Counted from the first letter of the stretch, positions 201 through 4,783 are shown. The stretch: 4,783 nt of DNA from Escherichia coli (GCF_003334815.1 NZ_QOWO01000075.1), one strand, 5' to 3'. A program made the numbers and translations. Notes: generated by a model from the letters alone, not told the origin.

Positions 201-626
201 ATGCAGTATGCGAAACCTGTCACTCTGAACGTTGAAGAGTGCGACCGCCTTTCCTTTCTGCCTTACCTGTTTGGCAACGATTTTCTGTATGCCGAGGCGT
301 ATGTGTACGCGCTGGCGCAAAAAATGATGCCGGAATATCAGGGAGGCTTCTGGCATTTCATCCGCCTGCCGGATGGTGGCGGTTACATGATGCCGGATGG
401 CGACCGTTTTCATCTGGTCAACGGTGAAAACTGGTTTGACCGCACTGTGAGTGCTGATGCCGCAGGTATCATCCTGACTTCCCTTGTGATTAACCGCCAG
501 TTGTGGCTGTACCACGACAGCGGGGATGCGGGACTGACACACCTTTACCGGATGCGTGATGCGCAGTTGTGGAGCCACATTGAATTTCATCCCGAATGTA
601 ACGCGATTTACGCAGCACTGGACTGA
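201..626 (+). CDS. klcA: Anti-restriction protein, ArdB/KlcA family (141 aa)
   Basis: ATG at 201 preceded by GGAGG (189-193, 7-nt spacer). Translation carries family-typical blocks: [36 protein letters not shown] and C-terminal AIYAALD. The 141-aa length fits this family; the upstream in-frame start at 84 has no RBS and would give a poorly coding GC-rich extension. Confidence 0.85.
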
Positions 627-672: not shown

Positions 673-1092
673 ATGTACTGTACTGTTAAAGAAATTATCC
701 GCGAAGTGCTGAATACAGACGTGCCGGACAGTGAATGTGTTTTTGCCGTGGTGCTGACCCGCGGGGATGTGCGCCACATAGCCCGGGACTGGAACCTGTC
801 AGACGATGAGCTGGAAACCGTCATGCAGCGGCTGGACGATGCTTTTGTATATGGCGCATGTGACAGAGTTGTTTCCGATATTGTCAATGAACTGATGGAG
901 GAAAAGCGCGTAAACCGTCTTGTAACAGTCCCTGCGGTGCTGCTGGAAAAAGTGATGGTGATGGCTGGTAGTGAAATTTATCGCCTCCATGCTGTAGGGA
1001 GCGAGAACGGGGGCGACGGTGACGCATTTGTCAGGGAAGAACGTGAGATTATGCGGGTAATGCGTCAGGCACTGGACGGGGAGAACGGGTAA
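673..1092 (+). CDS. Hypothetical leading-region protein, 139 aa (possibly DUF1380-like; assignment from memory, unverified)
   Basis: ORF with GGAG at 661-664 and 8-nt spacer to ATG 673. Acidic protein with coding-like composition; same strand and tight spacing with neighbours. Stop TAA 1090-1092 overlaps the next start. Confidence 0.75.
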   Translation: MYCTVKEIIREVLNTDVPDSECVFAVVLTRGDVRHIARDWNLSDDELETVMQRLDDAFVYGACDRVVSDIVNELMEEKRVNRLVTVPAVLLEKVMVMAGSEIYRLHAVGSENGGDGDAFVREEREIMRVMRQALDGENG

Positions 1093-1283
1093 TGAATATC
1101 AGCACGGAAACCCGCGAAATTCTGCGTAATTACAGGGCCGTGATTAATGCGCGGCGTCGTGAAATGGGGCAGAAACCGCTCACCACCGCGCAGATTGTTG
1201 ATGAAATCTGTGATTTTGTGGCGAATCAGCAGGCGGTTTTCCTCGGTGGTCACTACATCCTTCAGGGCAGCAGGCACAGGTGA
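1092..1283 (+). CDS. Small hypothetical protein, 63 aa, translationally coupled to the upstream ORF
   Basis: TAATG stop/start overlap at 1090-1094; GGGGAG at 1078-1083 with 8-nt spacer. No recognisable motif; called on context and coupling only. Confidence 0.5.
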   Translation: MNISTETREILRNYRAVINARRREMGQKPLTTAQIVDEICDFVANQQAVFLGGHYILQGSRHR

Positions 1284-1310: not shown

Positions 1311-1448
1311 TCAGCCCGCGCGAAAACCCCTGGCAGGCTGGCGCCTGCCGGAAGGGATGCGGGCCACGCTGGCGCGTCGCCCGTTACCCTTCCCGTTTGT
1401 GATGTGTCCGGAATGTTTTTTCCTGATGTTATGTTTCTGTGGTTACTG

Positions 1449-1477
1449 TTCTTCTTCTTCTTCTTCCTCTTCTTTCC
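1449..1477. repeat. Polypyrimidine simple-repeat tract containing (TTC)6 at 1449-1466
   Basis: Direct reading: ttcttcttcttcttcttc followed by ctcttctttcc; pyrimidine-only on the + strand for 29 nt. Confidence 0.9.
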
Positions 1478-1837
1478 GTTCCTCTCCTGTTTATGCCTTT
1501 TCCGGGCGTCCCCCTGGCGGGGCGGGCTGTCGTGAACGGAGCCAGCGGAGCTGTCTCCGCCCTGGCGGGCTTCCATCCCTGACGCAAAACCCCGGGTTTG
1601 CAGCGACCGGAACGGTCGCGCCACCCTTGTCGCGCCGTGGCCTGCGCTCCTGGCATCCCGGCAAAAAGACGCCGGGATGTAAGGCGCAACGCCGTTTCGC
1701 GCACGCGCTCTCCGTCGTTGCGGCGGGTCCCTGCTCATTGCCTGCCGGGTGCCACACACCCGTATGAGTCCCTGTCGCCGGGGGCTGATACAGCCACAAC
1801 CTGCCGCACTGACTGTCCAGGGTAAATGAACAGCCCA

Positions 1838-1873
1838 CAAAATTTTTTACCCAGAACCCGGTAAAAAATTTTG
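1838..1873. other. Perfect 14-bp AT-rich inverted repeat (CAAAATTTTTTACC / GGTAAAAAATTTTG) with 8-nt spacer
   Basis: Arms 1838-1851 and 1860-1873 are exact reverse complements. Flanked by a further imperfect pairing, 1813-1821 with 1882-1890 (8 of 9), suggesting a longer imperfect hairpin centred near 1855. Confidence 0.8.
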
Positions 1874-2252
1874 CGTTCTGCCCAGGACAGGTGCGTCAGG
1901 CCGTGGCAGTGATGCCCCTTGCGGCGAAGGTTCTCAAACGGGTGAAGTTCATACCACAGGGAATACAGCAGCAGGTTCCCGCGAAACGTCAAAACCGCGG
2001 CTCCCGAAACTCAACGGGTGATGTTCTTTAAAAATCAGGATTTATTTCAGGCTCCGGCAATACGCATTTATGTGTTCTGTCAGCATCCTGCTGACAGGTA
2101 ATGAGAACGCAGGAACAGAAGGAGGAATACACCGGAAAACGTCAGATGCAGATATGAAAAAAGCAGGTCAGGGACCTGCTTAATCCACGCCGAAGAGACT
2201 GTGCAACCAGTCTTTAAGGCACTGTTACCAACCTGTCATAAGGTATCCATTT

Positions 2253-2483
2253 ATGACTGTAAGCATTGTTTCACCTTCCGCAGCGGCTGTAAAGCCCCGT
2301 CGTCATACCCGTTTCAGACGCGAAGACATCCCCGCGCCGGAAATTGACCCCGTGCTGAAAGCCTTCGGGCGACACATTGCCCGGAGTTTTCGCCGGGGGC
2401 GTGGTGTACACATCCCCGCCATGAAAAACACGGCTTTCGGGCAGGTGCTCCGCACACTCGAACTGAAACGCGCTTTTAACTGA
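2253..2483 (+). CDS. Small arginine-rich hypothetical protein, 76 aa (possibly DUF905/UPF0401-like; unverified)
   Basis: ATG 2253 with weak SD (AAGG 2240-2243, 9-nt spacer); first ORF downstream of the structured element; co-oriented. Many R/K residues (KPRRHTRFRRED, RSFRRGRG). No motif recognised with certainty. Confidence 0.55.
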   Translation: MTVSIVSPSAAAVKPRRHTRFRREDIPAPEIDPVLKAFGRHIARSFRRGRGVHIPAMKNTAFGQVLRTLELKRAFN

Positions 2484-2534: not shown

Positions 2535-3896
2535 ATGACATTATCAGCAATCACCATGACCGCCCCGGAAGCCGCCAGCCCGGTGCAGATGTACCGCGCG
2601 ACCTACTCACCGGATGATAACAAACTGCGCCTGTATGCCGCGTCACGTCTTGACCCGGAGACGTATAAAAAAGTGCATGATGCCGGTTTTCGCTGGGCAC
2701 CAAAACAGGCGCTGTTTGTCGCGCCAGCCTGGACACCGGGCCGGGAAGACGTGCTCCTCTCACTTGCCGGAGAGATTGAGGATGAAGACAGCACGCTCGC
2801 TGAACGTCAGGAAGCACGGGCGGAGCGGTTTACCGGATACAGCGGAAAGCGGGCCAGTGAATCCGCACAGGCACTTGATGAAGTGGAAAGACTGGCCGCG
2901 ATGATCCCGCCCGGTCAGCCCATTCTTGTGGGGCATCACAGCGAACGCCGCGCCCGTCGTGATGCGCAGCGTATTGAAAACGGCATGAAACGTGCCGTGA
3001 TGCTCTTTGAACGTGCGGAATACTGGGAAGAACGGGCGCGGTCGGCACTGCTTCACGCGAAGTATAAAGAACGCCCGGACGTTCGCTGGCGTCGTATCAA
3101 AAAAATCGAAGCGGATTTGCGCAAGGCTGAAAAGACCATCGCACAGTCGCAGAAATATCTGACGATGTGGCGGGCTGAATCGCTGGATCTGAATATGGCA
3201 AAACTCATCAGCAGTCATGACCATATCAGCGCCTGTTTCCCGCTGGATACGTATCCGCGCCCGGCAGAAAAAAGCCAGTATGAAGGGAGCCGGTCGTTAT
3301 GGTCGGCCCTGGATGATGACATCATCACCACGGAGCAGGCCCGCGAAATTGCGATCCGCTGTCATGAACGGCAGATTCAGCATCAGCAACGCTGGGTTAA
3401 CCACTATCAGAACCGCCTGATCTATGAGCGTGCCATGCTGGACGAAAGCGGCGGCGTGGTTACCCGGACACAGGATTTTGAGCCGGGCGGACAGGTTTTC
3501 AGCCGGGGCGAGTGGCTGACCATCATCCGCGTGAACAAAAGCAACGGGGCGGTGAGTTCAGTCACAACGCCGAATTACAGTTTTCTCGGGTACAGCGGCA
3601 CGATGAAAGTGACGCCCGATCGCATCACGGACTACAAAGCACCATCGGCAGAAGAGGCTGCCGTCGCCAGTCAGGCCGCGAAGCGTCCGCCGGTAGTCAA
3701 CTATCCGGGGGAAGGTTTCCGGGAAATGACAAAGGCACAGTGGGCCGCCCTGCCCCGGGACTGTAAGGCCGTGCGCAGTGTGGCAGAGACAGAAGACCAC
3801 GGGGCATACCGCTACCGCCGCACAATGGATAATAATTTCCGCCTGGTGAGTGTGTATATTACCGACATGAAAATCACGGAAATCCCACAGAAATAA
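2535..3896 (+). CDS. Protein of unknown function, 453 aa (possibly DUF3560-type leading-region protein; unverified)
   Basis: Long ORF with RBS AGGAG at 2523-2527 and 7-nt spacer to ATG 2535. Central highly charged, probably helical segment (ERQEARAERF ... RRARRDAQRIENGMKRAVMLFERAEYWEERARSALLHAKYKERPDVRWRRIKKIEADLRKAEKTIAQSQKYL). No catalytic motif recognised by eye. Confidence 0.9.
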   Translation: MTLSAITMTAPEAASPVQMYRATYSPDDNKLRLYAASRLDPETYKKVHDAGFRWAPKQALFVAPAWTPGREDVLLSLAGEIEDEDSTLAERQEARAERFTGYSGKRASESAQALDEVERLAAMIPPGQPILVGHHSERRARRDAQRIENGMKRAVMLFERAEYWEERARSALLHAKYKERPDVRWRRIKKIEADLRKAEKTIAQSQKYLTMWRAESLDLNMAKLISSHDHISACFPLDTYPRPAEKSQYEGSRSLWSALDDDIITTEQAREIAIRCHERQIQHQQRWVNHYQNRLIYERAMLDESGGVVTRTQDFEPGGQVFSRGEWLTIIRVNKSNGAVSSVTTPNYSFLGYSGTMKVTPDRITDYKAPSAEEAAVASQAAKRPPVVNYPGEGFREMTKAQWAALPRDCKAVRSVAETEDHGAYRYRRTMDNNFRLVSVYITDMKITEIPQK

Positions 3897-3901
3897 GGTA
3901 T

Positions 3902-3927
3902 ATCCCCCCGGGAAATCCCCGGGGGAT
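3902..3927 (+). other. Intercistronic hairpin containing two CCCGGG palindromes
   Basis: ATCCCCCCGGGAAATCCCCGGGGGAT: outer 7-bp stem 3902-3908 / 3921-3927, a C-C mismatch, inner 3-bp stem 3910-3912 / 3917-3919, loop AAAT. Lies between the stop at 3894-3896 and the RBS GGAG 3931-3934. Confidence 0.5.
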
Positions 3928-3942
3928 GACGGAGATAATGAC

Positions 3943-4506
3943 ATGCACAGTCAGTTAAGAGAACGTATCCGGCTGCTGCGCGCAAGGCTGGATAACGCCG
4001 CACCGGTTGCTGAAATCCGGGCTGAATCTCAGCTTTTTGTGACACCTGCCCCGGTCTGTGATCGCCTGGTGACGCTGGCGGAAATCAGCAATCGTGATCA
4101 CATTCTGGAACCCTCTGCCGGCACCGGGGCCATACTGCGGGCGATTCGGGATACCGCGCCGGAGGCCATGTGTGATGCGGTGGAGAGCAACAGCGGGCTG
4201 GTCCGGTATCTGCGGGAAAATTTTAACGGTGTCAGGGTACAGTGTGGCGACTTCATGGAATGGCAGCCGGTGCAGTATTACAGCCGGATTATCATGAATC
4301 CGCCGTTCAGCCACGGGCAGGATATCCGGCATATCCTGCGGGCCTTTTCCCTGCTGCGTCCGGGTGGCGTTCTGGTCGCCGTCTGTCTGAACGGGCCACG
4401 CCAGCAGGAGAAGCTGTTACCGTTTTCTGACATCCGCGAGGAGCTGCCGCGCGGCACGTTTGCTTATACCCATGTTCCGACGATGATTATTCGTCTGCGC
4501 GCCTGA
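3943..4506 (+). CDS. Orphan SAM-dependent methyltransferase, 187 aa (amino-methyltransferase fold; N6-adenine/N4-cytosine DNA MTase-like, no recognisable target-recognition domain)
   Basis: RBS GGAG 3931-3934 with 8-nt spacer. Motif I (AdoMet binding) ILEPSAGTGAIL near residue 55; motif IV NPPF near residue 119 (IIMNPPFSHGQD). Motif order I then IV and the small size indicate a minimal MTase core. No adjacent restriction endonuclease gene in the window. Confidence 0.85.
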   Translation: MHSQLRERIRLLRARLDNAAPVAEIRAESQLFVTPAPVCDRLVTLAEISNRDHILEPSAGTGAILRAIRDTAPEAMCDAVESNSGLVRYLRENFNGVRVQCGDFMEWQPVQYYSRIIMNPPFSHGQDIRHILRAFSLLRPGGVLVAVCLNGPRQQEKLLPFSDIREELPRGTFAYTHVPTMIIRLRA

Positions 4507-4654: not shown

Positions 4655-4783
4655 CATTTGTCTGTTACTGATGATGTTGTTGTTCCTGCTACTGCTACTG
4701 CTACTGTTCTTCTTTTTTCTGCTGCTCTGATTACTGTCTGTTTTGTTGTTCTCCTGCTTATGCCTTTTCCGGGCGTCCCCCTG
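4655..4783 (+). promoter_or_regulatory. Start of a second copy of the Frpo/ssi-like element (truncated by window end)
   Basis: 4751-4783 (ctcctgcttatgccttttccgggcgtccccctg) matches 1484-1516 at 32 of 33 positions. Upstream there are shared ttactgttcttctt and ctgatgtt blocks plus a different simple-repeat tract. Confidence 0.6.
4670..4750. repeat. Compound simple-repeat tract: (GAT)2(GTT)3 at 4670-4684, (CTGCTA)3 at 4686-4703, T-rich pyrimidine run
   Basis: Direct reading of the sequence; differs in unit and copy number from the tract at 1449-1477 in copy 1. Confidence 0.9.

Follow-up and report, generated by a model that had tools for sequence, protein, structure and literature searches.

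Gene ydbA of IncF plasmid leading regions as the detached N-terminal module of a widespread fused DUF3560-methyltransferase family

General features of ydbA and ydcA

A 4,783-bp stretch of Escherichia coli DNA (GCF_003334815.1, NZ_QOWO01000075.1), referred to here as the window, includes a gene, ydbA, that codes for a 453-amino acid protein of the DUF3560 family (Pfam PF12083), followed by ydcA, which codes for a methyltransferase. In most relatives of YdbA the two are parts of one polypeptide, and YdbA is therefore likely to be a subunit of a methylation device rather than an independent factor. The first-pass annotation of this DNA had proposed YdbA as a candidate novel anti-defence or establishment factor; the genetic setting on which that proposal was built agrees with our results, but an independent novel activity is less well supported, since the evidence ties ydbA to a methyltransferase and its family has already been catalogued.

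The open reading frame (ORF) annotated at nucleotides 2535 to 3896 of the plus strand was recovered at exactly these coordinates. It starts with ATG, ends with TAA (3894-3896), is preceded by the Shine-Dalgarno sequence AAGGAG (2521-2526) located 8 nucleotides before the start codon, and is the longest ORF in the window. Its description as the largest gene of the island holds within the window, but a ParB-like gene farther along such plasmids exceeds it. The product is 99% identical to a 453-amino acid protein cluster with 5,613 member sequences, and the gene is that of R100/R1-type IncF plasmids. The PF12083 match covers YdbA residues 89-206 and model positions 3-121 of 124 (E value 1.1e-36). 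In comparisons with homologues that are 76% and 68% identical, the ratio of nonsynonymous to synonymous substitutions (dN/dS) was 0.12 and 0.10, respectively. Thus, ydbA is a real, intact, and conserved gene, which dN/dS indicates to be under purifying selection. The names ydbA and ydcA have been used in other papers, where ydcA of pS88 is a putative adenine-specific DNA methylase; the name ydaB for the small upstream gene (Table 1) is taken from the R100-style gene order.

YdbA is fused to a methyltransferase in most relatives

A search of 1.84 billion representative proteins produced 3,898 YdbA relatives, 695 of them with E < 1e-30. Those with 45-55% identity are mostly 630 to 750 amino acids long, and YdbA aligns to their first ~440 residues; typical alignments span YdbA residues 20 to 451, and YdbA has the full-length, four-region architecture of the family. 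BLAST comparisons showed that the extra C-terminal ~180 residues of the long relatives are homologous to YdcA (40-47% identity). YdbA and YdcA were matched colinearly in one chain by 101 of the 267 homologues retrieved, and of the 107 homologues included in an alignment with YdbA, 76 combine the complete YdbA-like region and a YdcA-like core in a single protein of ~600-750 amino acids. An independent set of 80 related IMG/VR loci included 72 with both modules in one ORF, two with adjacent genes, two with a methyltransferase nearby, and four with none, three of which are truncated by a contig end. About 95% of the informative relatives carry this single methyltransferase type, always in the same order. 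Pfam analysis found DUF3560 in all 108 aligned homologues together with MTS or other methyltransferase domains, and no other catalytic or effector domain recurs with the YdbA module. It is practically certain from these alignments that YdbA and the N-terminal part of the fused enzymes share a common ancestry.

Genes for the fused form are found on plasmids of Acidovorax, Comamonas, Burkholderia, Cupriavidus, and Pseudomonas, in the vicinity of ssb, DUF932, ArdC-like, RadC, and other methylase genes. A fused protein used as query (P0143) aligned over at least 80% of its length at one contiguous place in all of the best 5,000 plasmid records. Guilt by association around the fused relatives was uninformative, as the commonest neighbouring family was present in just 6 of 80 loci. 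Among the very long relatives an additional domain, LPD29, was found in one protein only, the 1,394-amino acid P0150, which has it at its C-terminus and also includes a second copy of the YdbA N-domain (~65 residues, 33% identity, E value 9e-10). This architecture indicates that the DUF3560-methyltransferase module is sometimes built into polyvalent proteins; YdbA itself, with 453 amino acids and no LPD domain, is not one of them.

The window departs from the fused arrangement in that ydcA is a separate ORF in another frame. Since YdcA is homologous to the cores of the fused proteins, ydbA-ydcA can be considered a split member of the fused family. All enterobacterial homologues down to 68% identity are split, and in those of 76% and 68% identity a methyltransferase gene of 187-191 codons is located 45-46 nucleotides downstream. 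The split forms make up one clade within the fused diversity of the phylogenetic tree, which indicates a single derived event inside the linker. By this phylogenetic evidence there was one ancestral split in the enterobacterial plasmid clade, and both halves have since been kept under selection, the dN/dS values being 0.10-0.20 for ydbA as well as ydcA. Through the split the linker acquired a stop codon, a hairpin, and a new ribosome-binding site for ydcA, and the products became YdbA and a YdcA of 187 amino acids.

The hairpin in the spacer between the two genes (Table 1) has counterparts of different sequence at the same position in the homologues of 76% and 68% identity, and possible roles include setting the expression ratio of the two genes, defining a transcript end, or forming a structure in single-stranded DNA. 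The C and G tracts of the spacer vary in length among close plasmids, the spacer being 46 nucleotides long in the window and 45 in plasmid AP026744. Programmed read-through or frameshifting that would restore the fusion was considered and rejected because the frame of ydcA relative to ydbA is not conserved: it is +1 in the window and in the Citrobacter plasmid CP045204, and 0 in AP026744 and in another of the loci compared (L092).

YdcA is a predicted minimal adenine methyltransferase

YdcA consists of a short helix followed by the sequences QLFVTP, EPSAGTG, and NPPF, and ends ~65 residues past the latter. The TP motif, the S-adenosylmethionine motif I, and motif IV, NPP(Y/F), are found in the order that defines the gamma-type (EcoKI/TaqI-like) N6-adenine DNA methyltransferases. 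The YdcA family profile aligns to M.TaqI (E value 2.6e-7) and also to KsgA and Erm, and the core is weakly similar to rRNA adenine methyltransferases. The PADLOC models for DNA methyltransferases match YdcA far better, MAD2 with an E value of 1e-19 and the Type II and orphan methyltransferase models as well. While M.TaqI carries a separate C-terminal target-recognition domain, the YdcA core has none. YdcA is therefore predicted to be a minimal EcoKI/TaqI-like gamma-type N6-adenine DNA methyltransferase core. The EcoKI/TaqI-like adenine methyltransferases of DarB-like polyvalent proteins have the same N-terminal helix and TP motif (Iyer et al. 2017, PMC5512222).

In both phage matches to the YdcA core whose annotations were inspected the core is included in a larger protein, one of 2,715 amino acids and the other a 543-amino acid fusion to DUF4942; a further match is annotated as a DarB-like protein. 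The DUF4942 fusion, from Pseudomonas phage PSA-2T (L094, 1334-2965), has the methyltransferase core and its N-terminal helix joined to DUF4942 instead of the YdbA module, and adjoins a Lar-like restriction-alleviation gene. By this arrangement, the N-terminal modules of this methyltransferase core appear to be interchangeable.

Domain organization of YdbA

The AlphaFold2 model of YdbA (mean predicted local distance difference test score 93, predicted template modelling score 0.81) shows an N-terminal extension and four regions (Table 1). The helices of the DUF3560 bundle comprise residues 88-122, 135-179, and 181-212, in agreement with the long charged helical segment that the first-pass annotation had noted at residues ~90-210: within residues 88-212 there are 28 Lys plus Arg and 19 Asp plus Glu among 125 residues, i.e. 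38% are charged, the net charge is +9, and the isoelectric point (pI) is 10.2. The pI is 8.85 for the whole protein and 9.3 for the C-terminal domain, which includes an SH3-like barrel of the KOW/Tudor type. The family alignment has 12 invariant and ~60 near-invariant columns spread over all four regions, the N-domain being the most conserved, and the invariant residues are mostly Arg and Trp. Those in the DUF3560 bundle are R91, W164, R186, R187, and R196, accompanied by the conserved loop GQPILVGHHS, in which H134, H135, and S136 are at least 90% conserved; H290, R294, and E298 are invariant on the long helix of the middle region.

That YdbA lacks a recognisable catalytic motif, as noted previously, was confirmed by the absence of any catalytic match in Pfam, NCBIfam, and PADLOC. 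NCBIfam and PADLOC gave no match of any kind, PHROGs returned families of unknown function only, and neither the protein nor the family profile matched any PDB sequence in the YdbA part. In remote homology searches, of the kind that the first-pass annotation had recommended, Pfam profiles identified DUF3560 only, and fold comparisons with the whole protein gave generic helical bundles only. No similarity to known anti-restriction, anti-CRISPR, or defence-related families was detected with NCBIfam, PHROG, and PADLOC; in particular, YdbA is basic and had no match to ArdA, ArdB/KlcA, ArdC, or Ocr-like mimics in these collections or in Pfam. A DNA-mimic anti-restriction protein was therefore discarded as a candidate, because YdbA and its two largest regions are basic. 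A possible likeness of the N-domain to small plasmid domains with the pattern GxRW...K.W was also dropped, since a Pfam search with the whole protein gave no such match.

Plasmid setting and expression

The window matches at least 5,000 plasmids in PLSDB, 3,818 of which cover at least 80% of it, mostly with 90-99% identity. They are for the most part conjugative and come from Escherichia, Klebsiella, Salmonella, and Shigella. The closest complete record is AP026744 (IncFIA, MOBF), in which the segment is located in the leading region with partition genes on one side and ssb-psiB-psiA-traM on the other. As the first-pass annotation had described, ydbA lies after a promoter-like element, before an orphan methyltransferase gene, and co-oriented with klcA; the element is of the Frpo type, and the ydaB-type ORF and ydcA have the same orientation as well. 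The klcA/ardB-type gene is the first of an operon that precedes the ydbA unit, and a long non-coding stretch separates the last ORF of that operon from the 76-amino acid ORF that opens the unit.

Table 1. Features of the window. Coordinates are nucleotides of the window; residues are those of YdbA.
Feature	Nucleotides	Strand	Residues	Evidence and remarks
klcA/ardB-type anti-restriction gene	201-626	+		PHROG 10132 'anti-restriction protein', E value 1.7e-20; labelled 'antirestriction protein' in matching plasmids
DUF1380 gene	673-1092	+		klcA operon; ORF call, same gene annotated in matching plasmids
63-amino acid ORF	1092-1283	+		End of klcA operon; ORF call, annotated in matching plasmids
Frpo-type single-strand promoter element	1483-2023	-		~540 nucleotides; hairpin on transferred (template, minus) strand; transcription towards ydbA
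ydaB-type 76-amino acid basic ORF	2253-2483	+		Opens ydbA transcription unit; called at the same place in related plasmids by the Prokaryotic Genome Annotation Pipeline
ydbA	2535-3896	+	1-453	453 amino acids
YdbA N-terminal extension			1-18	Low confidence in model
YdbA small alpha/beta N-domain	2589-2795		19-87	~65 residues
YdbA DUF3560 three-helix bundle	2796-3170		88-212
YdbA middle region	3171-3446			Long helix, residues 266-304
YdbA C-terminal region	3447-3893		305-453	SH3-like barrel and alpha/beta subdomain
GC-rich hairpin	3898-3930	+		In the 46-nucleotide ydbA-ydcA spacer; -21 kcal/mol; ydcA Shine-Dalgarno sequence GGAG at 3931-3934
ydcA	3943-4506	+		187-amino acid methyltransferase
Next Frpo-type copy, start only	4699-4783	-		Window ends inside; direct repeat with 1432-1516; ssb downstream in complete plasmids

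Nucleotides 1 to 2023 are colinear with F plasmid DNA at 90% identity, the similarity ending just before the F ssb gene, and nucleotides 1483 to 2023 are also 82% identical to a second Frpo-type copy of F. The core inverted repeat of the element extends from ~1757 to 1944 and is centred on 1831-1880; a long hairpin is predicted for nucleotides 1420-2040 of the minus strand (-155 kcal/mol, z = -9.5), in agreement with the description of Frpo single-strand promoters (PMC12672017). AP026744 has three ~540-nucleotide Frpo-type copies: the first precedes ydaB-ydbA-ydcA, another, which is 94% identical, precedes ssb, and the third is closer to oriT. No sigma-70-like site was found on the plus strand between nucleotide 1283 and ydbA. 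Since the unit lies directly behind an Frpo-type copy and a recognisable sigma-70 promoter was not found, ydaB-ydbA-ydcA is probably transcribed early in the new host from the entering transferred strand (T-strand). Transcripts of the corresponding region of pO157 from enterohaemorrhagic E. coli increased upon exposure to ciprofloxacin, the DUF3560 gene 5.1-fold, klcA 33-fold, and a neighbouring hypothetical gene 125-fold (PMC11125564), which suggests that leading-region units can be induced also in established cells under DNA stress.

Sequence comparison showed that the ydaB-ydbA-ydcA segment is absent from the F plasmid, where one Frpo-type copy is directly followed by ssb. As F lacks the whole module, the latter is considered accessory. 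The segment is bracketed by direct ~540-nucleotide Frpo-type copies (window 1432-2023 and 4699-4783; those of locus L001 are at 9706-10246, 12969-13510, and 18584-19123). This location between direct repeats and the absence from F suggest that recombination between the flanking copies could mediate gain or loss of the module.

Possible function of YdbA and YdcA

We propose, with a probability of about 0.5, that YdbA is a non-catalytic nucleic-acid-binding or targeting partner of YdcA, and that early expression of both from the entering strand leads to methylation of plasmid DNA. That the two proteins are functional partners is, taken separately, probable: the nearly exclusive association with one methyltransferase in a fixed order, a core devoid of a recognition domain, the basic and Arg-rich nature of YdbA, and the retention of both genes after the split make a partnership the most economical explanation. 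Action at plasmid entry is suggested by where the unit lies: it is part of the leading region, follows a single-strand promoter, is close to klcA, and precedes ssb and psiB. Following transcription of the unit from the T-strand through the Frpo-type promoter, the basic Arg-rich DUF3560 helices and the basic SH3-like C-terminal region of YdbA would contact nucleic acid, either directly or through a host protein bound to it, and YdbA would bring YdcA to the entering DNA or activate it there. The incoming plasmid would then gain N6-methyladenine before restriction enzymes act, although we give restriction evasion as the net effect a little less than an even chance. A more specific version, in which the YdbA module is a new nucleic-acid-targeting subunit that confers on a DarB-type core without recognition domain a promiscuous methylase activity specific to the entering strand or to hairpins, is unlikely at present; if correct, leading regions would include a second, plasmid-self-sufficient single-strand methylation system beside M.EcoGIX. 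Once split off, YdbA may in addition act by itself, either on the entering DNA or on a factor of the host.

Several observations weigh against this proposal. A DNA-binding fold was not identified with confidence in YdbA, for which whole-protein fold searches returned generic helical bundles only, the match to the SH3-like barrel is modest, and early expression from the Frpo-type copy rests on homology with F. We found no functional or experimental study of DUF3560 or ydbA in the literature, including methylome, binding, or conjugation studies. Fusion in the polyvalent proteins of mobile elements often joins independent activities rather than subunits (PMC5512222). YdbA could accordingly have an anti-defence or establishment activity of its own and be merely co-expressed or co-delivered with the methyltransferase, as polyvalent-protein domains are; it could coat or shield the entering DNA or the Frpo hairpins, or bind a host factor such as RNA polymerase, single-strand binding protein, or a restriction complex. 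We consider this the main alternative, if a somewhat doubtful one. In its favour, the linker of the fused forms is variable, flexible, and rich in Pro and Ala, and standalone full-length YdbA-like genes, although rare, do occur, one without a methyltransferase within 3.5 kb downstream (L007) and another with none within 5.8 kb (L044). DUF3560 is also present without a methyltransferase in shorter phage families (PHROG profiles of 355 and 213 positions), the polyvalent P0150 combines it with LPD29 and a second N-domain, and the methyltransferase core is joined elsewhere to unrelated N-terminal modules. In addition, the SH3-like barrels known from PcrA/UvrD (Tudor type) and NusG (KOW type) act as adaptors that bind protein or RNA. 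An independent effector, however, hardly accounts for a single methyltransferase type in the same order in ~95% of the informative relatives, for the absence of any other recurring catalytic or effector domain, or for a methyltransferase core that lacks its own recognition domain, and no resemblance of YdbA to known anti-restriction, anti-CRISPR, or defence-related families was found in NCBIfam, PHROG, or PADLOC.

The partnership could also serve a purpose other than restriction evasion, with YdbA-YdcA methylating plasmid or host nucleic acid for expression, replication, or strand discrimination. Plasmid methyltransferases can be regulatory (PMC11602122), a connection of M.EcoGIX with replication mode and with DNA polymerase I has been described (PMC7736820), and the YdcA core shows a weak similarity to rRNA adenine methyltransferases. 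Nevertheless, YdcA fits DNA methyltransferase models far more closely than rRNA methyltransferase models, the family occurs widely among phages and plasmids whose replication systems are unrelated and whose neighbouring genes are not conserved, and the position behind a single-strand promoter favours a transient function at entry, all of which makes an epigenetic or replication-linked role improbable. The idea that YdbA is itself an enzyme, with the conserved loop GQPILVGHHSERR as active site, derives from records such as AP026744, where it is labelled 'ydbA: hydrolase', and from the UniProt-derived names 'Hydrolase' and 'Predicted HD superfamily hydrolase' in the table of Samuel et al., and could find support in the conserved H134, H135, and S136 and in the invariant H290. 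It is very improbable: Pfam gave DUF3560 alone at E values up to 10, there was no match to hydrolases in NCBIfam, PDB sequences, or folds, and conserved Arg, Trp, and Tyr on long helices are typical of binding surfaces rather than active sites. The HD hydrolase names were rejected because no HD match was found even at this permissive threshold. As for a housekeeping function in partition or replication, homology to which the first-pass annotation had named as evidence against its candidate, or in transfer, we found nothing in its favour beyond residence on conjugative plasmids. F replicates, partitions, and transfers without ydaB-ydbA-ydcA, which is thus dispensable there, no match to ParA, ParB, Rep, or Tra families was found in Pfam or NCBIfam, and relatives are also present in phages beside portal and terminase genes. 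The F plasmid effectively refutes such a function, the least probable of all, and since no partition or replication homology was found the candidate stands on this point.

Relationship to known systems

The closest relatives, the fused DUF3560-methyltransferases, include WP_011798648.1 from Pseudomonas aeruginosa plasmid pIPM3H3-GES5 (658 amino acids) and a gene of an Acidovorax sp. JS42 plasmid annotated as 'Methyltransferase type 11', and are themselves uncharacterised. The homology is colinear, at 45-52% identity over YdbA residues ~20-451 and 40-47% for YdcA, and the neighbourhoods (ssb, DUF932, ArdC-like) similarly resemble leading regions. Unlike these single polypeptides with their Pro/Ala-rich linker, the window has two genes between which a stop codon, a hairpin, and an additional ribosome-binding site are interposed.

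DarB of phage P1 and DarB-like proteins have an EcoKI/TaqI-like adenine methyltransferase core flanked by LPD36 and an SNF2 helicase. YdcA is like the DarB core in its N-terminal helix, TP motif, NPP(F/Y), and lack of a recognition domain, and in being found among accessory modules. DarB is deployed at DNA entry to protect from restriction, a role like that proposed for YdbA-YdcA. However, the module that accompanies YdcA is the DUF3560-containing YdbA rather than LPD36 and a helicase, there is no ATPase, no homology between YdbA and DarB was detected, and, unlike the packaged DarB, YdbA-YdcA would be made in the recipient from a single-strand promoter.

M.EcoGIX and M.BceJIII are single-strand-specific N6-adenine methyltransferases encoded in leading regions (Fomenkov et al. 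2020, PMC7736820), and M.EcoGIX, which is reported to protect pESBL from restriction (PMC7736820), is a precedent for the entry role proposed here. Their activity is lost on purification, together with DNA polymerase I, and is recovered by fusing the methyltransferase to the polymerase (PMC7736820), and therefore they seem to need a partner. YdcA resembles M.EcoGIX in being an orphan adenine methyltransferase encoded in a leading region, oriented for expression from the entering strand, and proposed to block restriction, but while M.EcoGIX is of the beta class (DPPY) YdcA is of the gamma type (NPPF), and its putative partner, YdbA, is plasmid-encoded. The M.EcoGIX homologue of these IncF plasmids is a separate 'DNA methylase' gene upstream of klcA. 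A further parallel is ArdC, a leading-region protein expressed in the recipient in which a single-strand DNA-binding domain is combined with a metalloprotease, just as a nucleic-acid-binding and an enzymatic module are proposed here. No sequence or fold similarity between ArdC and YdbA was detected, and the proposed enzymatic partner of YdbA is a methyltransferase on a separate polypeptide.

The family had been found before. It is Pfam DUF3560, annotated in thousands of records, and anti-restriction by methylation is a known strategy, so that the activity proposed for YdbA is not wholly novel. In the survey of Samuel et al. (2024, Supplementary Table 1) it is family 28 of the largest families enriched in leading regions, with 1,913 members, a median position of 12 from oriT, and the same strand as the T-strand genes; the enrichment was significant, and the label 'Uncharacterized; DUF3560; Methyltransferase domain protein' was derived from structural similarity to a UniProt entry. 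Chromosomal CRISPR arrays of Klebsiella pneumoniae include three spacers against the DUF3560 gene and more against the adjacent methyltransferase gene and the small upstream ORF (PMC6965323). Our additions are the explicit demonstration that ydbA corresponds to the N-terminal module of a widespread fused methyltransferase, from which it has become detached, an account of how the two genes are separated, and a description at the domain level. Thousands of sequenced IncF-type plasmids for resistance and virulence, from E. coli, Klebsiella, Salmonella, and Shigella, carry the gene pair, and the family of ydbA ranks among the larger uncharacterised ones that show enrichment in the DNA first to enter a recipient. 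Its link to a methyltransferase turns a gene formerly listed as unknown into one that can be tested precisely and cheaply, with the natural fused and split versions as ready-made controls. If the partnership is real, it would explain how a minimal methyltransferase core that lacks a recognition domain finds its substrate, and IncF plasmids would gain a second methylation-based defence at entry.

Other features of the ydbA transcription unit

A match to the Rfam family AS-pc01 (RF02875, 'antisense to pHK01_035') was found on the minus strand at 2158-2258, with a score of 68.7 bits that is below the gathering score of 79 (E value 5e-11). On the same strand the region is framed by a promoter-like site at 2293-2265 (TTTACA-17-AACAAT, with a TG) and a terminator-like hairpin with a T-run at 2181-2161. 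Because it overlaps the first bases of the 76-amino acid ORF (start at 2253) and its upstream region, this candidate antisense RNA may control ydaB-ydbA-ydcA. Between the stop codon of the same ORF and the Shine-Dalgarno sequence of ydbA there is a perfect 8-bp GC stem (GCCGCCCC gcga GGGGCGGC) at 2492-2511, which is not followed by a T-run; the 57-nucleotide stretch around it (2481-2537) folds with z = -4.8. A gene of the gonococcal genetic island, a mutant of which had no DNA-secretion phenotype, shares the name ydbA with the plasmid gene, which need not imply homology. Finally, the leading region of the Citrobacter plasmid CP045204 (L091) includes, at 3381-3635, a gene for a homologue of the theta subunit of DNA polymerase III (PF06440), with the klcA operon on one side and the ydbA unit on the other.

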